A stretch of DNA of 64,000 bases, taken from positions 160,001 to 224,000 of IMG/VR virus record IMGVR_UViG_3300002834_000024; one strand, written 5' to 3'. The notes beneath the pieces are model-generated. The model was not told the origin of the DNA and searched no databases. It worked only from the letters and a program-made list of their open reading frames with translations. The stretch's first letter is position 1. Every line of letters begins with the position of its first letter. Position numbers and translations under genes: made by a program. Origin of the DNA: a virus (taxonomy: Duplodnaviria; Heunggongvirae; Uroviricota; Caudoviricetes). This document shows positions 53,384 through 61,032 of this stretch, one piece after another.

Positions 53384-53827
53384 ATGGCAGCAAGTAAATT
53401 TTTTCCAATGAGTGAGGATATTGTAGATTTAATCCTTGATGTAATGAAAGATGATACACCCTATCTGGCGACATTAGGTCTTGATTTTACTTATCTTGGA
53501 GTTGCAAAACAACCATCAATAATTAAAGTATCAAAGATTGCACCAATAGCTGAATATCTTATTGAAAAGGAAACAATTGTAATAACAATTTATGAACAAG
53601 CATTTGAAATGCTAACACCAGAATATAAGAAGATGGTTATAGCACATGCGTTAAATTCAATTGAATATGATTCAGATAAAGATAAATTGAATATTCGTGG
53701 AAATGGTGGAACAGCCATTGATGAAGGGATATACAACAAATATAAAGAAACATCTGTACTGGCAGTATTTGCTGGCGAACATGCAATCAGACAAATCGAA
53801 GAAGATAAGAAAAAAGATAAACAATAA
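53384..53827 (+). CDS. Phage metallopeptidase-like protein with a degenerate HExxH
   Basis: W/F-x-x-L-x-x-x-x-K-x-x-V-I-x-H pattern, but HALNS in place of HExxH. Confidence 0.45.
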   Translation: MAASKFFPMSEDIVDLILDVMKDDTPYLATLGLDFTYLGVAKQPSIIKVSKIAPIAEYLIEKETIVITIYEQAFEMLTPEYKKMVIAHALNSIEYDSDKDKLNIRGNGGTAIDEGIYNKYKETSVLAVFAGEHAIRQIEEDKKKDKQ

Positions 53828-54150
53828 TGGACAAAATTGAAATTAGAGTTGGTATTGGTTTGGATAGTATAACTTTTGCTATATTACCATCCAGAAGACA
53901 ATATATAAATAATTGTTATCCAGATACAATTCAAGCAAACTATGTTACCATTAACTATGATATTAATAAGTGTGAAAATGTTGAAAACTTTATTTTGAAG
54001 TATAAACATAATATTTCCACAATCTTATTTGGAATAGATAGTCAAATTGTTTTATCTGATGATAAAGTTAGAGAAATACAATTTGTGTATTCCAAAGACG
54101 AAAAAATATTATATACCTATACAATGTCAGATCATTGTAGAAAAATATAA
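53827..54150 (+). CDS. Hypothetical protein
   Basis: ORF with TAATG overlap. Confidence 0.55.
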   Translation: MDKIEIRVGIGLDSITFAILPSRRQYINNCYPDTIQANYVTINYDINKCENVENFILKYKHNISTILFGIDSQIVLSDDKVREIQFVYSKDEKILYTYTMSDHCRKI

Positions 54151-54154
54151 TATA

Positions 54155-54304
54155 TTATTTAGTTCTGATAATAGCACGTCTTGTATTCACTCTTGGAGTA
54201 ACCCCACCATAGTTACCATTAGGTTTAACCCCAATATTTCTTGGTGCTTGTTTTTGAACCTGTGTTTTAACAGCTGGTACAGCTCTTTTTGAACAATTGC
54301 ACAT
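54155..54304 (-). CDS. Small basic protein (49 aa, not in ORF track)
   Basis: MCNCSKRAVPAVKTQVQKQAPRNIGVKPNGNYGGVTPRVNTRRAIIRTK; TATTTATA on the minus strand at 54322-54329. Confidence 0.6.
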   Translation of the reverse strand: MCNCSKRAVPAVKTQVQKQAPRNIGVKPNGNYGGVTPRVNTRRAIIRTK

Positions 54305-54419
54305 AATATTAATTATTTTAATATAAATATGATTAAAACTTGGAATATTGAAATATTTATACTATATTTATAAATGAAATTACAGAGGTAATTCAAGAAA
54401 AAAGAAAATAACAAGGTAA

Positions 54420-54515
54420 AGGAAATTCACAGCAATTTTTTAAAAATTAACAATTATTCAATTCAAAGACCGTAGGGTTGATCTATCGGGATCAACAAAC
54501 AAAAACAAATTTCCT
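54420..54515 (+). ncRNA. ACAGCAA stem RNA, unit 1
   Basis: AGGAAATT/AATTTCCT closing stem, ACAGCAA, internal GTTGATC/GATCAAC hairpin, 3' T run. Confidence 0.55.
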
Positions 54516-54527
54516 GTCTTTTTTAAA

Positions 54528-54586
54528 GGAAAACTAACAGCAATTTTTAAACATACAAATTTTAGGCGTGTATTAAAGAGTTTTCC
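54528..54586 (+). ncRNA. ACAGCAA stem RNA, unit 2
   Basis: GGAAAACT/AGTTTTCC closing stem, ACAGCAA, ATACA/TGTAT hairpin, 3' T run. Confidence 0.55.
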
Positions 54587-54645
54587 GTTTTTTTTTTGAA
54601 AATTTAGAAATAATCAATATATTTATATTTGATTAAAAATTATAT

Positions 54646-54717
54646 CGTGGGATGGAGAAGTGGTATCTCGTGGGGCCCATAACCCCAAGATCGCAGGATC
54701 GTAACCTGCTCCCGCAA
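54646..54717 (+). tRNA. tRNA-fMet (CAT), initiator type
   Basis: C1:A72 mismatch, A11:U24, GGG/CCC anticodon stem; atypical C33 and T-loop ATCGTAA. Confidence 0.9.
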
Positions 54718-54727
54718 CAAACTTATA

Positions 54728-54792
54728 GGAAAACTAACAGCAATGTTTAAAAACCATCATTCTGAATCAATGACGACATTAAAATGTTTTCC
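54728..54792 (+). ncRNA. ACAGCAA stem RNA, unit 3
   Basis: GGAAAAC/GTTTTCC closing stem, ACAGCAA, TCATT-CTGAATC-AATGA hairpin, 3' T-rich run. Confidence 0.55.
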
Positions 54793-54813
54793 GTTATTTT
54801 TTAAAAATTGAAC

Positions 54814-54821
54814 TATTTATA
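54814..54821 (+). promoter_or_regulatory. Putative late promoter TATTTATA driving leader 1
   Basis: Same motif precedes many late-type genes and leader 2. Confidence 0.5.
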
Positions 54822-54842
54822 ATTCTAAAAGAAATTAAAAAA

Positions 54843-54977
54843 ATGTTTTTAGTAACAATGACATCTTATATTCAAAATTCTATCAATTTACGTGGTGGAA
54901 ATAAGAATAATAAACCCTTTGGTGATGATGAACAACCAAAAGGGCAAGACCTGTTATTGCAAAAATTTGAAACATAA
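54843..54977 (+). CDS. Attenuator leader peptide 1 (44 aa) for tRNA operon 1
   Basis: MFLVTMTSYIQNSINLRGGNKNNKPFGDDEQPKGQDLLLQKFET; core residues match the downstream tRNA set. Confidence 0.75.
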   Translation: MFLVTMTSYIQNSINLRGGNKNNKPFGDDEQPKGQDLLLQKFET

Positions 54978-55006
54978 ATGAAGATATAAGTTTCCATAGT
55001 TTTTCA

Positions 55007-55065
55007 GAGAACTCTCAATAACAAGGTCAAGAATAGGGCAAGTTATTGGGAGTTTTCATTTTTTT
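55007..55065 (+). terminator. Attenuator terminator 1 (competes with antiterminator 54948-54959 : 55016-55028)
   Basis: 16-bp stem GAGAACTCTCAATAAC/GTTATTGGGAGTTTTC plus T7. Confidence 0.8.
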
Positions 55066-55108
55066 AACATCCAGTTCAAAAGAGTTTGAATAATTTGGAT
55101 TACTTTTG
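55064..55108 (+). promoter_or_regulatory. Bipartite promoter TTAACATCCAG-N26-TACTTTTG just upstream of tRNA-Glu
   Basis: Conserved motif and spacing. Confidence 0.7.
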
Positions 55109-55118
55109 TAAAAAATAT

Positions 55119-55193
55119 GGCGGTATCGTATAACGGTTAGTACGACTGACTTTCGCTCAGTAAATAGGGGTTCGATTCCCCTTACCGCTACCA
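55119..55193 (+). tRNA. tRNA-Glu (TTC)
   Basis: Cloverleaf; ACTGA-CTTTCGC-TCAGT; encoded CCA. Confidence 0.92.
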
Positions 55194-55198
55194 AGAAA

Positions 55199-55210
55199 GT
55201 TCTTTGAAAT
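55199..55210 (+). promoter_or_regulatory. boxA-like antitermination element
   Basis: GTTCTTTGAAAT resembles rrn boxA. Confidence 0.45.
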
Positions 55211-55217
55211 ATAAAAT

Positions 55218-55289
55218 TCCCCTGTAGCTCCAATGTAGAGCGACAGACTGTTAATCTGTGGGTTCGTGGTTCAAGTCCACGCAGGGGAG
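55218..55289 (+). tRNA. tRNA-Asn (GTT)
   Basis: Cloverleaf; ACAGA-CTGTTAA-TCTGT; G73. Confidence 0.92.
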
Positions 55290-55297
55290 CTAAAAAA

Positions 55298-55374
55298 CGA
55301 AAGGTAGAGGAGTCTGGTTCCCTCGTCATCTGATGTGCAGGTGGAGTACAATGGTTCAAATCCATTACTTTCGA
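55298..55374 (+). tRNA. Atypical tRNA-like gene with a Pro-type body and an abnormal anticodon arm
   Basis: C1:G72, A73, D-loop AGTCTGGT, T-arm AATGG-TTCAAAT-CCATT; anticodon arm TCATCTG-ATGTG-CAGGTGG. Confidence 0.6.
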
Positions 55375-55381
55375 CTAATAT

Positions 55382-55457
55382 CTAGATGTATAGGAGTCTG
55401 GTTTATCTAGCTCGCCCTGGAAGCGAGATCACGTTGGTTCAAATCCAACCATCTAGA
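55382..55457 (+). tRNA. tRNA-Pro (TGG), atypical C33/A37
   Basis: CTCGC-CCTGGAA-GCGAG; C1:G72, A73. Confidence 0.85.
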
Positions 55458-55464
55458 CACAAAT

Positions 55465-55538
55465 GCAGGTGTCGTATAACGGTATTATTATATCTGGCTT
55501 CCAACCAGAGGACGTGGGTTCGATTCCTATCACCTGCT
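55465..55538 (+). tRNA. tRNA-Gly (TCC)
   Basis: TCTGG-CTTCCAA-CCAGA; U73. Confidence 0.92.
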
Positions 55539-55548
55539 CAACAAATAT

Positions 55549-55621
55549 GGGATTTGTGGTGTAATGGCTAGCATATAACACTGTCACTGTTAAGGTTGGG
55601 GTTCGAGTCCCCCAGATCCCG
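55549..55621 (+). tRNA. tRNA-Asp (GTC), apparent 8/4 acceptor/T-stem fold
   Basis: TAACA-CTGTCAC-TGTTA; GGGATTTG/CAGATCCC; G73. Confidence 0.88.
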
Positions 55622-55629
55622 CAAAAAAA

Positions 55630-55702
55630 CGAGTAGTCGCACAGTTGGTAGTGCGCTTGGTTTGGGACCAAGAGGTCGGGAGTTCGAGTCTCTCCTATTC
55701 GA
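55630..55702 (+). tRNA. tRNA-Pro (TGG), canonical
   Basis: CTTGG-TTTGGGA-CCAAG. Confidence 0.93.
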
Positions 55703-55718
55703 CATAAAAATAGAAATT

Positions 55719-55766
55719 ATGAAGAAGATTTTTAAAATAAAACGAAAACATATGCAGTCCCCATAG
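55719..55766 (+). CDS. Mini leader peptide 3 (MKKIFKIKRKHMQSP) before tRNA-Lys/Arg/Gln
   Basis: AT-rich leader; five Lys codons, then Arg and Gln; stop codon inside hairpin 55759-55784. Confidence 0.55.
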   Translation: MKKIFKIKRKHMQSP

Positions 55767-55799
55767 TCACTATCGGCTATGGGGTCGCTATCAGGCTAT

Positions 55800-55870
55800 T
55801 TCCTCATAGTTCAATGGTAGAACTCTACACTTTTAATGTAGATATTCAGGTTCGATTCCTGATGGGGAAA
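55800..55870 (+). tRNA. tRNA-Lys (TTT)
   Basis: CTACA-CTTTTAA-TGTAG. Confidence 0.92.
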
Positions 55871-55902
55871 CAAAAAAAAAATAGATATATGATAATTAAT
55901 AT

Positions 55903-55974
55903 GGTTTCATAGTTCAACGGATAGAATATTTGACTACGGATCAAAAGATGAGGGTTCAAATCCTTCTGAAATCA
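55903..55974 (+). tRNA. tRNA-Arg (ACG)
   Basis: TTTGA-CTACGGA-TCAAA. Confidence 0.92.
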
Positions 55975-55985
55975 CAAGCATATAT

Positions 55986-56057
55986 TGTCCTATGGTGTAG
56001 TTGGAAACACACATCCCTTTGACGGATGTATCTTTTGTTCGAGGCAAAATGGGACAA
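55986..56057 (+). tRNA. tRNA-Gln (TTG)
   Basis: CATCC-CTTTGAC-GGATG; U1:A72. Confidence 0.9.
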
Positions 56058-56076
56058 CAAATTAAAATATAATGTT

Positions 56077-56379
56077 ATGGATAAAATAATGATGTTTGAT
56101 AAAGAACATGAAGTTCTTGTTAGTAATGATACTAATGGATTAGTATGTGAAACTGAAATGATGAATATGATTGGGAAATCAACAATTCCAGTTTTTATGA
56201 ATAGAAAGCAAAAATTAGAAGAACATGCAAGTTTGTTGTTAAATGATTTAGATGTTGAAATTATTCAATCACATCCAGTTGAACCATCTAAAATTCATGT
56301 AAAAGTAAAATCATTTGAGGATTGGAAAGAATCTATAAAAGATATACCGCCAATTGGAGTAGTAACCATACCTAATTGA
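56077..56379 (+). CDS. Hypothetical protein
   Basis: ATG 56077 lies downstream of tRNA-Gln. Confidence 0.55.
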   Translation: MDKIMMFDKEHEVLVSNDTNGLVCETEMMNMIGKSTIPVFMNRKQKLEEHASLLLNDLDVEIIQSHPVEPSKIHVKVKSFEDWKESIKDIPPIGVVTIPN

Positions 56380-56393
56380 TAATACCATCTAAT

Positions 56394-56438
56394 TTAACAT
56401 CCAGTAAAATTTATTTTTATATAAGTTTATTATTTTTG
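56394..56438 (+). promoter_or_regulatory. Bipartite promoter TTAACATCCAG-N26-TATTTTTG
   Basis: Conserved motif and spacing. Confidence 0.75.
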
Positions 56439-56471
56439 TATCATTATTAACACAAATAATTTAAAAAAGTT

Positions 56472-56819
56472 ATGAGAATTGCATTTAGGCTTTGTGATAA
56501 TACAAAACAGTTAAAAACAACTGATAAAAATGCACATGTTTTTGAAAGAGTAGATGATACATTCATAATTCCAAGAAAAGGTGATGTAGTTGTTTTTTTT
56601 GGTATAAAATATGAGGTAATTTCAGTAGAATTTACCTATAAAGAAATATCATTATTAAATATGTATCATGATGAAGCAAAGAAGATTTATCCATTTATTG
56701 TGGGACAAGATGATAAAATAACAGATACGGTAACTGTTCATTTATTTGAATATAGTCCAAAAATAAAGAAAAAGGGGTTTATTCGCACACTTCTTTCACA
56801 TGGGTTTACTAATTTTTAA
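56472..56819 (+). CDS. Hypothetical protein
   Basis: ORF after promoter; IPRKGDVV motif. Confidence 0.6.
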   Translation: MRIAFRLCDNTKQLKTTDKNAHVFERVDDTFIIPRKGDVVVFFGIKYEVISVEFTYKEISLLNMYHDEAKKIYPFIVGQDDKITDTVTVHLFEYSPKIKKKGFIRTLLSHGFTNF

Positions 56820-56848
56820 AATTCATATTTATAAGAAAATATGTTTTT

Positions 56849-57088
56849 ATGGAAAAAATTGAAAATATTATAAAAGAAACTATAACTGAATATGTTTTGC
56901 AACCAGAGGGGTTGGATCAAAAGATTAGAAATAAATTAACACCAATATATAATCTCATTGAAGTATTAAAAATGTATGATAAAGATCCAGATCCAAAAAT
57001 ATGGGCGTTTATTATGAAAGAAAACAGTATGGTTGAAAAATCTATTCAAGAGATATTGGAATTAACAAAAGATTATCAACACACTTAA
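56849..57088 (+). CDS. Hypothetical late protein (IENIIKETITE N-terminus)
   Basis: TATTTATAAGAAAA at 56826. Confidence 0.6.
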   Translation: MEKIENIIKETITEYVLQPEGLDQKIRNKLTPIYNLIEVLKMYDKDPDPKIWAFIMKENSMVEKSIQEILELTKDYQHT

Positions 57089-57102
57089 AATCATATAATG
57101 TT

Positions 57103-57315
57103 ATGACAGAAAAACAGAAACAAAAAATTTGGAATTTCAAGGATACCAATCTTCAACAATGGCAACATGAAAGAACTATTGTTGAAAATGAATTATCTAA
57201 TAATCAATCCATGTTTTGTGTTTGTGGTAAATTAGCCACAGGATTTCATGAAATGAATTGTAGAAAATTCAATGATAAAGTGGATATAGAAACTCTTAAA
57301 AGATTAAAATTATAA
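57103..57315 (+). CDS. Small Zn-binding protein
   Basis: CVCG...H-x-x-x-C. Confidence 0.55.
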   Translation: MTEKQKQKIWNFKDTNLQQWQHERTIVENELSNNQSMFCVCGKLATGFHEMNCRKFNDKVDIETLKRLKL

Positions 57316-57317
57316 AA

Positions 57318-57362
57318 TTAACATCCAGAACACTTTTTATTAATATGTTATGTTTATCTTTG
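57318..57362 (+). promoter_or_regulatory. Bipartite promoter TTAACATCCAG-N26-TATCTTTG
   Basis: Conserved motif and spacing. Confidence 0.7.
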
Positions 57363-57415
57363 AGTAATTTTTAGAGATAAAAGGATATTTATTTAGTAGA
57401 AAAGATAAAAATAAT

Positions 57416-58147
57416 ATGATTATGAACAAAGATAAAAAAGACTTGATAGTTGAGAGTTATAAGAACAAATTTTCCTTTTTACTTGGATATGATCCAGAAA
57501 TTGGGGGCGAATTGATAGAAGCAAACCACCATAATTTTATGTCAGAAATTATGGGACAAGATTCATTCAATAAACAACCAATGCAAAGATTAGATGAAAT
57601 AACAACTGACAGATTGTTAGGAAAACATTATGAAAATGGATTTGTTATTCTGTCAGCATCAAGGAGTGAATTATCCGATGCAGAAAATGTAACACGAAAT
57701 CAAAAACTTTTAAATATTTTACAAAGTAGTAGTAATGTTTTTTCATTTTTACCAGTCTATGGTGGATATATCGAAAATAAGGGTACAGAAAACGAACAAC
57801 GTGTTTTTGAAAGAAGTTTTGTAATCTTGAATTTTGATAAAAATGGTAATGTTGGAGATTTTGATGATTTAATGAGTTTTTCACAAGAACTTTCTAATCG
57901 TTTTCATCAAGAAACATATCTTATCAAAAAACCAGGTAATGCACCACCATATTATATTCGTACAAAAAGTGGCAAGGTAGATTGGGAATTTACTGGTGAA
58001 ATCAAAATAGATGATTTAACACAAAAATATTTTACCCGATTAAGACAACTTGGAAAACAATTTACATTTGAAGGTGTTTATATTAATCCAAAACCAATGT
58101 GTTATAGTGAAAGACATTGTAGATATTTGAAAAATGAAATATTTTAA
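57416..58147 (+). CDS. Putative S-adenosylmethionine lyase (T3 SAMase-like) with N-terminal extension
   Basis: ILSASRSELSDAEN-x-x-R, GGYIE, FERSFVI, F-HQE motifs follow the order I recall for T3 SAMase (VSAFRS-x-L-x-D-x-x-N-x-x-R, GCYRE, EEKTV, WEQD). Confidence 0.6.
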   Translation: MIMNKDKKDLIVESYKNKFSFLLGYDPEIGGELIEANHHNFMSEIMGQDSFNKQPMQRLDEITTDRLLGKHYENGFVILSASRSELSDAENVTRNQKLLNILQSSSNVFSFLPVYGGYIENKGTENEQRVFERSFVILNFDKNGNVGDFDDLMSFSQELSNRFHQETYLIKKPGNAPPYYIRTKSGKVDWEFTGEIKIDDLTQKYFTRLRQLGKQFTFEGVYINPKPMCYSERHCRYLKNEIF

Positions 58148-58189
58148 CATCCAGAAGATTGTTTTTTAAAAAAATTGTTTGTACTTTTG
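58144..58189 (+). promoter_or_regulatory. Bipartite promoter TTAACATCCAG-N27-TACTTTTG
   Basis: Conserved motif and spacing. Confidence 0.7.
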
Positions 58190-58195
58190 TATCAC

Positions 58196-58412
58196 ATATA
58201 GAGTAATCTATATTGTTTAAATTTAGTTATGAGGATGTGGACTGAATTGTGTGATGTATGTCATTGCAAAATGCACAATTCAAGGGATACAGCAAGACAG
58301 CTAACAAGGTGAATTAACATCAAAGGGTGAAAATCTCACAAACATAAGGTTGAAAGCCCGTAAAAGAATTTGATGCGTGTTGATTGTGTAGTAATTATTT
58401 TAAACTTTTTTT
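58196..58412 (+). ncRNA. Candidate ~200-nt structured ncRNA
   Basis: Own promoter, GTAA-capped 5' hairpin, closing stem, two internal domains, 3' T run. Confidence 0.45.
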
Positions 58413-58432
58413 TAAAAATTGAATTTATTGAC

Positions 58433-58440
58433 TATTTATA
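58433..58440 (+). promoter_or_regulatory. Putative late promoter TATTTATA driving leader 2
   Basis: Similar context (A/G-ACTATTTATAAT) to that before leader 1. Confidence 0.5.
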
Positions 58441-58463
58441 ATAAAATTAAAAATTTTTTAACA

Positions 58464-58574
58464 ATGAAACGATTTAGTTTACATATTAGTATTACCTTAT
58501 CAGCAATGGCGTATTGCTGGTTGGTGTCTTATTGTACACTTTTTACACATTTTGGTGGAATTGTTTCAAGTTAA
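58464..58574 (+). CDS. Attenuator leader peptide 2 (36 aa) for tRNA operon 2
   Basis: MKRFSLHISITLSAMAYCWLVSYCTLFTHFGGIVSS; residues 4-30 are exclusively the 12 amino acids of the downstream tRNAs. Confidence 0.8.
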   Translation: MKRFSLHISITLSAMAYCWLVSYCTLFTHFGGIVSS

Positions 58575-58605
58575 TATTATATGAAATAAAGATAGGAAAG
58601 ATTAT

Positions 58606-58662
58606 AATCCCCTTGAAACAAATTAGTCAAAAAGTGATGAAAAGTTTTAAGGGGATTTTTTT
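58606..58662 (+). terminator. Attenuator terminator 2 (competes with antiterminator 58561-58570 : 58612-58621)
   Basis: 14-bp stem AATCCCCTTGAAAC/GTTTTAAGGGGATT plus T run, ending 2 nt before the first tRNA. Confidence 0.82.
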
Positions 58663-58664
58663 AT

Positions 58665-58736
58665 TGTGTTATAGTTCAGTGGTAGAACAGGTGTTTCATA
58701 GGCATCAAGTCGGGGGTTCAAATCCCTCTAACGCAA
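58665..58736 (+). tRNA. tRNA-Met (CAT), elongator type (Ile2 not excluded)
   Basis: GGTGT-TTCATAG-GCATC. Confidence 0.85.
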
Positions 58737-58746
58737 CAAATATATT

Positions 58747-58831
58747 GGAGAGTAAACCTGGACATGGGTTAGGGACCGCCTGCTAAGCGGATCGTTCCGC
58801 AAGGAATTTGGATCGAGACCAATGCTCTCCG
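58747..58831 (+). tRNA. tRNA-Ser (GCT), apparent 8/4 fold, T-loop ATCGAGA
   Basis: CCGC-CTGCTAA-GCGG; long variable arm; G73. Confidence 0.85.
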
Positions 58832-58840
58832 CAAAATTTT

Positions 58841-58932
58841 GGAGGTGTAACCCTAATGTGTAAGGGACTGGTCTTGAAAACCAGCAGTAATCATGTAAAA
58901 GTGATGTGTCAGTTCGAGTCTGACCACCTCCG
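58841..58932 (+). tRNA. tRNA-Ser (TGA)
   Basis: CTGGT-CTTGAAA-ACCAG; long variable arm. Confidence 0.9.
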
Positions 58933-58944
58933 CCTTAATAATGA

Positions 58945-58956
58945 GGTCTTTGACAT
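58945..58956 (+). promoter_or_regulatory. boxA-like antitermination element
   Basis: GGTCTTTGACAT resembles rrn boxA. Confidence 0.5.
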
Positions 58957-58972
58957 GTTGGTAAAAATAAAT

Positions 58973-59060
58973 GAGAGTGCGCTAGCGTTGGAGAGCTGGG
59001 ATGGGCTGTAACCCCATTGCCTTTAACAGGGCTTAGTAGGTTCGATTCCTACCACTCTCA
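58973..59060 (+). tRNA. tRNA-Tyr (GTA)
   Basis: ATGGG-CTGTAAC-CCCAT; long variable arm. Confidence 0.9.
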
Positions 59061-59065
59061 CATAT

Positions 59066-59140
59066 GGGAATATCGTATAGGTGGTTATTGTACGCTGGAC
59101 TGAAAATCCAGAGGCTGGGGTTCAACTCCCTGTGTTCCCA
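59066..59140 (+). tRNA. tRNA-Phe (GAA)
   Basis: CTGGA-CTGAAAA-TCCAG. Confidence 0.9.
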
Positions 59141-59150
59141 CAATAAGTGA

Positions 59151-59234
59151 GGGGATGTGGCGAAATTGGTAGTACGCATCGGGTTTAAGCCCCGATTCCC
59201 AAAAGGAGTGTCGGTTCGAGTCCGACCATCCTCA
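59151..59234 (+). tRNA. tRNA-Leu (TAA)
   Basis: TCGGG-TTTAAGC-CCCGA; variable arm. Confidence 0.92.
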
Positions 59235-59242
59235 CAACAAAT

Positions 59243-59327
59243 GGGGATATGGGGGAATTGGCAGACCCGCCTGTTTTAGGAACAGGTGCAGTAATGCGTG
59301 TGAGTTCGAGTCTCACTATCCCTACCA
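59243..59327 (+). tRNA. tRNA-Leu (TAG)
   Basis: CCTGT-TTTAGGA-ACAGG; encoded CCA. Confidence 0.93.
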
Positions 59328-59330
59328 AAT

Positions 59331-59401
59331 GTTCCATTAGCATAATGGTAGTGTACTGGTCTGCAAAACCAGGTGTATCCGTTCAATTCGGATATGGAAC
59401 T
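59331..59401 (+). tRNA. tRNA-Cys (GCA)
   Basis: CTGGT-CTGCAAA-ACCAG; U73. Confidence 0.92.
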
Positions 59402-59415
59402 CAAAAAATATTAAA

Positions 59416-59488
59416 GGGGCTGTCATATAGTTGGCTATTATGATAGATTTGCAATCTATTCACTGGGGTTCGAGACCCCACAGCTCCA
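59416..59488 (+). tRNA. tRNA-Ala (TGC)
   Basis: ATAGA-TTTGCAA-TCTAT; G3:U70. Confidence 0.92.
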
Positions 59489-59494
59489 CAAAAA

Positions 59495-59568
59495 GTTTCT
59501 GTATTTCAGTGGTTTAGAATGTTACTCTTACAAGGTAAAGGTCGTTGGTTCAAATCCAACCAGAAACA
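59495..59568 (+). tRNA. tRNA-Val (TAC)
   Basis: TTACT-CTTACAA-GGTAA. Confidence 0.92.
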
Positions 59569-59578
59569 CTCATAACAT

Positions 59579-59651
59579 TGGCACGTATATCAATGGTCAG
59601 ATTACCACCCTGATAAGGTGGGGGTTACTGGTTCAAGTCCAGTCGTGCCAA
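59579..59651 (+). tRNA. tRNA-Ile (GAT)
   Basis: CCACC-CTGATAA-GGTGG. Confidence 0.92.
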
Positions 59652-59666
59652 CTAAATTTTTTATAT

Positions 59667-59737
59667 AGGTACATGGTGTAATGGTAGCATTTTGGTCTCC
59701 AAAACCAACGATCAGGGTTCAAATCCTTGTGTACCTG
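59667..59737 (+). tRNA. tRNA-Trp (CCA)
   Basis: TTGGT-CTCCAAA-ACCAA; G73. Confidence 0.92.
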
Positions 59738-59743
59738 CTACAT

Positions 59744-59817
59744 GGTATCGCTGGTGTAATGGTTAGCATGGCACATTGTGAGTGTGTAGGTTAGGGGTTC
59801 AAGTCCCCTGCGATACC
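59744..59817 (+). tRNA. tRNA-His (GTG)
   Basis: GCACA-TTGTGAG-TGTGT; G-1:C73. Confidence 0.92.
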
Positions 59818-59823
59818 CAAATA

Positions 59824-59855
59824 TTTGGAAAACAATTTTAAAAACAGTATTTTTG
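59824..59855 (+). promoter_or_regulatory. Canonical Bacteroidota promoter TTTG-N20-TATTTTTG
   Basis: Matches the -33/-7 consensus and spacing, upstream of the lipoprotein gene. Confidence 0.65.
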
Positions 59856-59873
59856 TATTAAAATTTTAAAAAT

Positions 59874-60380
59874 ATGAATAAAAAAATGATTTTATTGTCA
59901 ATATTAATGACAAGTCTGTTTTATGGTTGTGGAAGTATGGGTAGTGTTGCTGTTAAAAATGTAAATTCATGTACATATAAAATTGTTAATACAACTTTTA
60001 TTTATGATTTGTTTGATAGTGATGAAGAATATGAAAATAAATTTAGGTTAATTAAATTAGCAATTTATGATATATTTCCTAATATGGATGGTAACACATT
60101 TTTATTTGATGATGAATTAAAAGTTATTCAAGGAAAAATGATTTATAATGTACATACAGATTCTTTTTTTGGAACAAAATATGAAGGGAGAAGTAATTTC
60201 AAAATTATTAATAATAAGATAACATTTAGTAATCCCGAAATATTTTTTTTACCATCTCGTTATAGTAGTGGTGGGTGGGAGAAAATACCAAATGAGGGAA
60301 CTATATCTGAAAAAACCGCATGTAATACAATAGATGTGTGGGAAAAAATGGTAATAAAACTTTTAGAAAACATAAAATGA
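59874..60380 (+). CDS. Lipoprotein
   Basis: MNKK plus hydrophobic core and LFYGC lipobox. Confidence 0.7.
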   Translation: MNKKMILLSILMTSLFYGCGSMGSVAVKNVNSCTYKIVNTTFIYDLFDSDEEYENKFRLIKLAIYDIFPNMDGNTFLFDDELKVIQGKMIYNVHTDSFFGTKYEGRSNFKIINNKITFSNPEIFFLPSRYSSGGWEKIPNEGTISEKTACNTIDVWEKMVIKLLENIK

Positions 60381-60385
60381 TTAAT

Positions 60386-60457
60386 GCTTCTGTAGTTCAA
60401 TGGCTAGAACATCTGCTTTGTAACCAGAAAATATCAGTTCGATTCTGATCAGAAGCT
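60386..60457 (+). tRNA. tRNA-Thr (TGT)
   Basis: TCTGC-TTTGTAA-CCAGA (31:39 mismatch); acceptor GCTTCTG/CAGAAGC. Confidence 0.88.
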
Positions 60458-60476
60458 CTCAATTTTTACCAACAAA

Positions 60477-60647
60477 ATGTCAAAAGAATTATATAATTGG
60501 TTAGAATTTCGTTTCAGACATGATAATTTAAAAAAATATCATAAATATTTTCAACAATGGGTTGATAATATAACTGAAAATCAAGTTCAAGGTTTTTATA
60601 ATCAATTTACCAGTTTCATAGGTCAAGATATAATTTGGAAACCATAA
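60477..60647 (+). CDS. Small hypothetical protein (56 aa, not in ORF track)
   Basis: MSKELYNWLEFRFRHDNLKKYHKYFQQWVDNITENQ... Confidence 0.6.
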   Translation: MSKELYNWLEFRFRHDNLKKYHKYFQQWVDNITENQVQGFYNQFTSFIGQDIIWKP

Positions 60648-60657
60648 TTTACCAACA

Positions 60658-60981
60658 ATGAAAAATTTCAATAAACTTAGAGAGGAAGAAAAATATATTT
60701 ATGAATCCATTATGGCAGCCAGAAAGGTTCAATCTTTTTTATGGGGCGAATTTGAAGAAACAAGTGCTGACATAGAAGAATTTTGTCGAATGTTTCGGAA
60801 AAGAGTTTCAAAAATTGATGAAATAGATTTTAATAATCCACATTATAAAATTGAATTAAAAAAGAGGGTACTTCAAATTTGTGCTATTGGTATTAATTTT
60901 ATCAATAAATTGGAAAATAATGACTTTCCTGAAAAACCACTATTACCATCTAATCTTTCAAACTATTCATTATCCAATTAA
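60658..60981 (+). CDS. Hypothetical helical protein (possibly MazG-like)
   Basis: LKKRVLQICAI resembles a MazG-type helix. Confidence 0.5.
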   Translation: MKNFNKLREEEKYIYESIMAARKVQSFLWGEFEETSADIEEFCRMFRKRVSKIDEIDFNNPHYKIELKKRVLQICAIGINFINKLENNDFPEKPLLPSNLSNYSLSN

Positions 60982-61032
60982 TTTTGTTAATTAATTTTAT
61001 TTTAAATATTTTTATATAAAATATTAATTTTT

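Follow-up and report, generated by a model that had tools for sequence, protein, structure and literature searches.

The 64,000-nucleotide (nt) window analysed here (positions 160,001 to 224,000 of the IMG/VR record IMGVR_UViG_3300002834_000024, a virus of the Caudoviricetes) carries two arrays of transfer RNA (tRNA) genes, each preceded by a short open reading frame (ORF) whose codons are largely those read by the tRNAs encoded downstream, and it is these leader-array cassettes that we describe. The record is a single sequence of 274,786 bp from an uncultured virus, with 29% G+C and a completeness of 74% (CheckV). The stretch is present in two termite-gut metagenome DNA runs, where the contigs are identical to the window and so show no population variation, and no RNA run is listed as containing it. 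We refer to this phage as W and to the relatives introduced below as L086, L087, G001 and G007, with L124 denoting a piece of G001 and L150 a piece of G007. Coordinates of W are those of the window, and features lie on the plus strand unless stated otherwise. ARAGORN identified 26 tRNA genes in the genome, 24 of them within 54646-60458, and one further gene was found by eye; ARAGORN and Rfam concur on most tRNA genes in the region.

Array 1 (55119-56058) encodes Glu, Asn, an odd tRNA-like gene with a UGU anticodon, Pro, Gly, Asp, a second Pro, Lys, Arg(ACG) and Gln. The odd gene (55298-55375) forms a cloverleaf with A33 in its anticodon loop and is called by ARAGORN but not by Rfam; a homologue in G007 has an AGU anticodon and likewise A33. 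The first Pro gene (55382-55458, UGG anticodon) carries C33, and its homologue in L087 has the normal U33. Changes in the anticodon loop have been proposed to help phage tRNAs escape anticodon nucleases (PMC10264068). Array 2 (58665-59818) encodes Met, Ser(GCU), Ser(UGA), Tyr, Phe, Leu(UAA), Leu(UAG), Cys, Ala, Val, Ile(GAU), Trp and His. Its Ser(GCU) gene (58747-58833) was missed by both ARAGORN and Rfam, was read by eye and folds as a class II cloverleaf; similar unrecognised Ser genes are found in G001 (L124, minus strand, about 3590-3410) and G007 (L150:7581-7668). Behind array 2 lies tRNA-Thr(UGU) (60386-60458), set apart by a 168-amino-acid ORF (59874-60380); its co-transcription with the array is putative. 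A sequence-only reading of this DNA had proposed that the two blocks divide the amino acids between them without overlap. This holds overall, apart from the doubtful UGU gene and the duplicated Pro of array 1, neither of which the reading had listed. An Arg(UCU) tRNA gene lies far from the arrays in W and has no leader, and single tRNAs elsewhere in G000 and G001 directly follow protein genes, again without leaders.

Upstream of each array and on the same strand, as in ribosome-mediated attenuators, we found a short ORF: leader ORF 1 (54843-54977) has 44 codons with a core at 54891-54950, and leader ORF 2 (58464-58574) has 36 codons counted from the ATG with a core at 58473-58553. An antisense ORF at 54872-54997 was considered as a real gene and rejected, as it is not open in L087. 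Both leaders are headed by the promoter-like motif CTATTTATAAT (54813-54823 and 58432-58442), which stands 19-21 nt upstream of the ATG, and the shorter form TATTTATA is kept before the homologous ORF in L086, L087 and G001. The genome holds 81 copies of TATTTATA, 35 of which precede ORF starts against a background of 12%. The motif also heads an initiator-type tRNA-Met gene (54619-54718 including the motif, tRNA 54646-54718) that bears the C1-A72 mismatch and the three G-C pairs beside the anticodon loop typical of initiators. In W, L086, G001 and G007 the initiator tRNA follows a bare TATTTATA promoter with no leader ORF, and this fits the model developed below because elongating ribosomes cannot sense an initiator tRNA.

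The composition of the two leader cores closely follows the arrays that they precede. In the core of leader 1, 19 of 20 residues belong to the array-1 set and all eight members of the set are present, and the 27 residues of the leader 2 core are drawn exclusively from the 12 amino acids of array 2, again with every one represented. In a search of all six frames of the 274,786 bp, a single 20-residue window contained the eight array-1 amino acids with no more than one residue from outside the set, and this was the leader 1 core; likewise, the leader 2 core was the one window of 27 residues made up purely of array-2 amino acids in which all twelve occurred. Runs of at least 20 residues made up purely of array-2 amino acids occur 51 times in the genome, and only leader 2 contains all 12. 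We estimate the chance of such a window falling within a few hundred bases before the matching array at <1e-3 per leader, a value that is uncorrected for the post hoc choice of statistic. The proposal that each core uses essentially only, and all of, the amino acids of its own operon is thus borne out by windows that are unique in the genome. The agreement extends to the level of codons. Across the genome Arg is encoded by AGA in 60% and by CGT, CGA or CGC in 29% of cases; the W-lineage leaders and the mini-leaders write Arg exclusively as CGT or CGA, and the arrays carry Arg(ACG). Similarly, leader 2 uses both AGY and UCN codons for Ser and both UUR and CUN codons for Leu, and array 2 has two Ser and two Leu tRNAs.

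Between each ORF and its tRNA genes lies a predicted hairpin followed directly by a U-run, as in intrinsic terminators. The candidate terminator of leader 1 (55007-55065) has a 16-bp stem (55007-55022/55042-55057) with its T-run at 55059-55065, and that of leader 2 (58606-58662) a 14-bp stem (58606-58619/58644-58657) with a T-run to 58662; the stems have predicted energies of -21.8 and -20.7 kcal/mol, respectively, and each is followed by 7 T. Across the genomes, the main leaders combine strong stems with 5-9 T. Both W leaders as a whole fold far better than shuffled sequence (z of -4.6 and -5.1). We then searched for the best upstream partner of the 5' arm of the terminator in five leaders (W leader 1, L086, L087, W leader 2 and G001), and in five of five it belongs to the final 50 nt of the ORF and ends 1-17 nt ahead of the stop codon, with predicted duplex energies of -11 to -16 kcal/mol, as expected of an antiterminator. 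In W leader 1 this segment, region 2, spans 54948-54959 and pairs with 55015-55028 (-14.7 kcal/mol); in W leader 2 it spans 58559-58570, ending 1 nt before the stop codon, and pairs with 58612-58624. In L086 the antiterminator pairing belongs to the minimum-energy fold. A further segment, region 1, is able to sequester region 2 in both leaders. In leader 1 (regions 1 and 2 together 54905-54959), GAATAATA (54905-54912) pairs with 54952-54959 and encloses a hairpin (54915-54922/54936-54944); in the consensus structure of three genomes AATAATA pairs with TGTTATT, and the inner hairpin shows a compensatory change from T-A to G-C across these genomes. In leader 2, region 1 (58464-58474) coincides with the start-codon region and pairs with 58559-58570, an arrangement kept in G007 with one compensatory change. 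The predicted pairings of the leaders therefore have the 1:2, 2:3 and 3:4 layout of classical attenuators, and the common plan that the sequence-only reading had seen upstream of both blocks, namely a motif, a short ORF, an antiterminator strand at the 3' end of the ORF, a terminator with T-run and the tRNAs, is confirmed.

Relatives of this locus were reached through neighbouring proteins. Searching 54300-60500 against GenBank phages with blastn returned generic tRNA matches only, and tblastn of two neighbouring proteins against the same phages gave no useful match. A 147-amino-acid neighbour gene (53384-53827) led us to the Joint Genome Institute (JGI) contigs L086 and L087 (75% and 72% identity), its alignment led to complete giant-phage genomes in IMG/VR, among them G001 (367 kb), and a 659-amino-acid protein encoded beside the G001 leader led to G007 (360 kb). 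Other anchors were unproductive: homologues of a gene at 57416-58147 were found at loci without tRNAs, the lipoprotein encoded at 59874-60380 had one homologue with no tRNAs nearby, and an exact scan of IMG/VR for the promoter pattern returned 72 single chance matches and no related genome. The combined pattern of regions 2 and 3 of leader 2 recovered only G007 in IMG/VR, and in bacterial genomes gave four chance matches, of which the two inspected were unrelated.

The leader ORF is kept open in all five genomes. Homologues of leader 1 have 40 (L086), 43 (L087), 43 (G007) and 31 (G001) codons and share a conserved N/D-N/E-K-P motif; the internal indels among the aligned versions of W, L086 and L087 are multiples of three, and regions 2 and 3 are nearly identical in these genomes. 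A terminator and a competing segment at the 3' end of the ORF are kept in the leaders of L086, L087, G001 and G007. The leader 2 homologue of G007 has 36 codons, nearly identical regions 1, 2 and 3, a covarying terminator and a diverged core.

Where array content differs between genomes, the text of the leader differs with it. The G001 array encodes Thr, Tyr, Glu, His, Asp, Asn, Gln, Pro and Leu(UAG), and 15 of the 16 core residues of its leader are drawn from this set, with all nine members present and CTA as the first Leu codon. G007 contains a third cassette, in which the TATTTATA motif is followed by a 30-codon ORF, a 9-bp hairpin with T-run and then Gln, Gly and Trp tRNAs; its leader has the core GQQGWQQFGQG, and 11 of 14 core residues are Q, G or W. 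Array 1 of G007 consists of Glu, Asn, the odd gene, Asp, Pro, Pro and then Lys, and the core of the leader in front of it lacks G, R and Q, there being no Gly, Arg or Gln tRNA downstream. Leader 2 of G007 precedes Ser(GCU) and Tyr, then Ser(UGA), Phe, Leu(UAG), Cys and Thr, then Ile and His; its core has no internal Met or Trp, the tRNAs for both of which lie elsewhere in the genome, and its sole Leu codon is CTT, only Leu(UAG) being encoded downstream. Gln codons in leader 1 follow the same pattern, with four in W, where the array has Gln, and one and zero in L086 and L087, respectively, where no Gln tRNA is found. For an objective comparison, eight leaders from the five genomes were each scored over the 20 codons ahead of the computed region 2. 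Residues belonging to the leader's own array numbered 18/20, 16/20, 13/20, 13/20, 16/20, 18/20, 16/20 and 11/20, an enrichment in all eight (binomial p 7e-3 to 2e-6), and six of the eight windows covered the whole array set. When every leader was compared with every array, its own array set was the best match in seven of eight rows, L087 being the exception. By their unique windows, their enrichment and their co-variation with the arrays, the leaders thus hold codons that match the tRNAs following them, as expected for the regulatory codons of an attenuator. Comparison of leader composition with array content in relatives had been suggested together with the idea itself, and the two co-vary in L086, L087, G001 and G007, with exceptions given below.

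The two arrays differ in how far they would depend on their leaders. A second promoter-like class in this genome consists of TTTTAACATCCAG followed about 30 nt later by TAnnTTTG, which we take to be the -7 box known from Bacteroidota; its presence suggests that the host is probably a member of the Bacteroidota. We counted 26 copies of this class genome-wide; in 19 cases an ORF begins no more than 120 nt away (background 12%), most copies standing 52-87 nt ahead of ORF starts, and in the window the class occurs at 55062, 56392, 57316, 58142 and 62357. G007 has a variant, TTAACAT...TAnnTTTG. The copy at 55062-55108 (TTTTAACATCCAG...TACTTTTG) lies between the leader 1 terminator and tRNA-Glu and is kept in place in L086 and L087, with none at this position in array 1 of G007. 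Because this promoter stands downstream of the terminator, array 1 cannot be gated by its leader alone, and the contribution of the attenuator would be limited to extra transcripts, perhaps made at another stage of infection. For array 2 the T-run of leader 2 is separated from tRNA-Met (58665) by 3 nt, leaving no room for a promoter, so every array 2 transcript must pass the hairpin. Another promoter of the TTTTAACATCCAG class (58142-58189) lies 270 nt upstream of leader 2, and between it and the leader (58196-58435) we found no significant fold and no Rfam match. Sole gating by an attenuator would accordingly apply to array 2 and not to array 1, where the promoter bypasses the terminator.

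Considering these features together, we think it likely that the cassettes attenuate transcription through the ribosome in the manner of trp, his and ilv, with tRNA arrays in the place of biosynthetic genes. In this model, a promoter of the TATTTATA class would start a short transcript carrying the 36-44-codon ORF, the middle of which would sample the codons read by the downstream tRNAs and the last codons of which, region 2, could pair either with region 1 or with region 3, the 5' arm of the terminator 3:4. If all sampled aminoacyl-tRNAs were plentiful, the ribosome would reach the stop codon and cover region 2, the terminator would form and the array would stay off as far as the leader promoter is concerned. 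If any sampled tRNA were scarce, the ribosome would stall in the core, region 2 would be free to pair with region 3, and transcription would read through into the tRNA genes. If the leader were not translated, regions 1 and 2 would pair and the terminator would again form. We infer translation of the leader ORFs, termination at the hairpins and the direction of the response from the arrangement of the DNA, and on this basis the phage probably makes a tRNA block from its leader promoter when ribosomes read the codons of that block slowly. The feedback circuit sensing the charged-tRNA pool that the sequence-only reading envisaged gains support from the co-variation of leaders and arrays in relatives; its on-demand character would not be exclusive for array 1.

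Several observations weigh against this model and should be read with it. The antiterminator duplexes are only moderately better than those of shuffled sequences (p 0.03, <0.002, 0.14, 0.14 and 0.11). The loops of the terminators are long (13-22 nt), and a simple scan for terminators passed them over. The stop codon of leader 1 comes 16 nt after region 2, so that a ribosome at the stop would barely cover that region. Outsiders remain in the cores, namely F or C in a stem, S and C in leader 1 of G007, and A and G in leader 2 of G007, and the odd UGU tRNA-like gene of array 1 has no matching Thr codons in the leader 1 core. The L087 leader retains Gly codons although its array, split by an endonuclease gene, yielded no Gly tRNA. 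The separate promoter behind the terminator of array 1 in W, L086 and L087 belongs here as well. Finally, the more distant relatives G002-G006 (30-40% identity of the anchor protein) have scattered tRNAs, and no such leaders were seen in them by eye.

Within array 1, a Lys-rich mini-ORF and a hairpin occupy 55719-55784 just before tRNA-Lys: the ORF has 15 codons (55719-55766), and the hairpin (55759-55766/55777-55784) has no T-run. The mini-ORF is kept in four genomes, W, L086 (11846-11915), L087 (14646-14715) and G007 (L150:5762-5830), with 12-15 codons, four or five of them Lys, Arg encoded as CGA, and a stop codon at the base of a covarying hairpin that lacks a T-run, 15-35 nt ahead of tRNA-Lys. 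This element may represent a second, non-terminating control layer inside the array. A wider reading, which we offer tentatively and hold to be possible rather than probable, is that the cassettes form a modular surveillance of the tRNA pool, in which each array, and through mini-ORFs even single tRNAs, is switched on separately when its codons are read slowly.

Other explanations share parts of the attenuation model. The leaders might sense tRNA supply through translation as proposed and yet act on a different step, such as folding of the precursor, its processing by RNase P/E, its stability, or pausing of RNA polymerase. The covarying hairpin of the Lys mini-ORF, conserved and lacking a T-run, would suit such an output, as would the unusual length of the terminator loops and the position of the leader 2 hairpin at the 5' processing site, the T-run ending 3 nt before the first tRNA. 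We nevertheless regard this as unlikely, considering that the main leaders have strong stems with 5-9 T directly behind them and that in every genome the competing pairing hits the 5' arm of the stem, which is needed to control termination and not to control processing. Reading of tRNAs by the leader RNA itself, with codon-anticodon contacts stabilising the antiterminator as in a T-box and no ribosome involved, would likewise account for leaders that display the codons of downstream tRNAs beside terminator and antiterminator alternatives. When 53800-61000 was scanned against Rfam at E up to 1, all matches were tRNA-related or due to chance, with no T-box or other family; the start, frame and stop of the ORF are conserved, with indels in threes; and a T-box, with its fixed scaffold, reads a single specifier codon and not a series of 8-12 different ones. 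To direct sensing we consequently assign the slightest probability of the explanations considered here.

It could also be argued that the ORFs are ordinary small late genes for a membrane peptide and a hydrophilic peptide, that each has a promoter and a terminator to itself and only happens to lie next to an array, and that the match to the arrays merely reflects a split of the tRNAs into polar and non-polar. Leader 2 does resemble a small membrane peptide, with MKR followed by a hydrophobic stretch, the two amino-acid sets of W are roughly hydrophilic and hydrophobic, promoter-terminator units are common in the region, and array 1 has a promoter of its own. Against this, only leader 2 among the 51 pure runs has the complete set, and polarity can explain neither a Q/G/W leader before Gln, Gly and Trp tRNAs in G007 nor a leader of T, Y, H, L, D, E, N, Q and P before exactly those tRNAs in G001. 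Since it also leaves the codon-level matches to isoacceptors and the conserved competing pairings unaccounted for, we strongly disfavour the small-gene explanation and consider it very improbable.

The surroundings of the arrays contain further conserved or mobile elements. Repeated modules flank the initiator tRNA in W (54424-54526, 54528-54597 and 54728-54805), L086 (10800-10860 and 10958-11025) and G007 (L150:7205-7345), each with a conserved GGAAA..ACAGCAAT head, its complement (TTTCC) 30-80 nt later and then a T-run; they resemble terminators with very long loops, and the conserved head suggests another role. What appears to be a tmRNA-like (transfer-messenger RNA-like) gene, absent from the ARAGORN output, lies between tRNA-Glu and tRNA-Lys of G001 (L124, minus strand, about 3135-2450); it has a GGGGTCGACAGGATTT start and a tag reading frame ending in ALAA. 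Mobile genes have moved into the tRNA region of the relatives: L087 (10658-11911, 13314-14438) carries a TnpB-like gene (Cas12f1-like_TNB) together with a DUF559 endonuclease gene inside array 1, and in G007 the remnant of an HNH endonuclease sits between the Gln and Gly tRNA genes (L150:14005-14110). Between the arrays of W, the 243-amino-acid protein encoded at 57416-58147 matches an S-adenosylmethionine lyase family (PF23780, E 3.5e-7) and probably has an anti-restriction function. On the minus strand, a 49-amino-acid ORF (54155-54304) is rich in basic residues and starts with MCNCSKR; it is nearly identical in L086, whereas neighbouring genes are only about 75% identical.

Leader-peptide attenuators are familiar from enterobacteria, where ilvGMEDA is controlled by Ile, Leu and Val codons and thr by Thr and Ile codons, and where trpL, hisL, leuL and pheL act in the same way. 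The cassettes described here share with them a short codon-enriched ORF, the 1:2, 2:3 and 3:4 segments, a hairpin with U-run before the regulated genes and, as we propose, the sensing of charged-tRNA supply through the position of the ribosome. They differ in that the regulated genes are themselves tRNA genes, so that the sensed molecule and the product are of the same kind; in that the leaders sample 3-12 amino acids, mostly one to four times each, where the known leaders, ilv and thr being the multivalent ones, have runs of one to three; and in that they are encoded by a phage whose host, probably a member of the Bacteroidota, works without Shine-Dalgarno-led initiation. Attenuation by a leader peptide of a component of the translation apparatus is represented by pheST in E. 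coli with its pheM leader, although the target there is an aminoacyl-tRNA synthetase and the signal a single amino acid, in contrast to tRNA arrays and many amino acids here. T-box riboswitches are also transcription attenuators that answer tRNA status and control translation-related genes, but they bind one uncharged tRNA by a conserved scaffold without a ribosome, whereas here it is an ORF that is conserved.

To our knowledge, the regulation of phage tRNA genes is essentially unknown, and the reason for their carriage is debated between codon supply and escape from tRNA-targeting defence. The tRNAs that phages encode take the place of host tRNAs cut or depleted in the course of infection (PMC10264068, PMC11464382, PMC11555353), which gives a phage reason to measure tRNA supply; these papers describe the tRNAs themselves, and as far as their abstracts and our searches go none reports a sensor controlling the transcription of tRNA genes. 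Our full-text literature searches returned papers on phage tRNAs against tRNA-targeting defences and none on attenuation of tRNA genes, in agreement with the initial impression that translation-coupled attenuation of tRNA arrays had not been described. Anticodon-nuclease defence is a plausible motive for such a circuit.

If the attenuation model is true, it would constitute the first direct feedback from decoding speed to the transcription of tRNA genes and would take classical attenuation into phages and probably into Bacteroidota hosts, giving it a new kind of output and a simultaneous response to many amino acids. A further implication would be that the tRNAs are kept as a replacement set made on demand and not as a constant supplement, and the rule that leader text equals array content, being readable in sequence, could be surveyed across metagenomic giant phages. 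Should the more tentative modular surveillance hold as well, a giant phage could detect the cleavage or shut-off of host tRNAs, for example by anticodon nucleases, and answer set by set, and the text of a leader would be rewritten whenever tRNA genes move between arrays.

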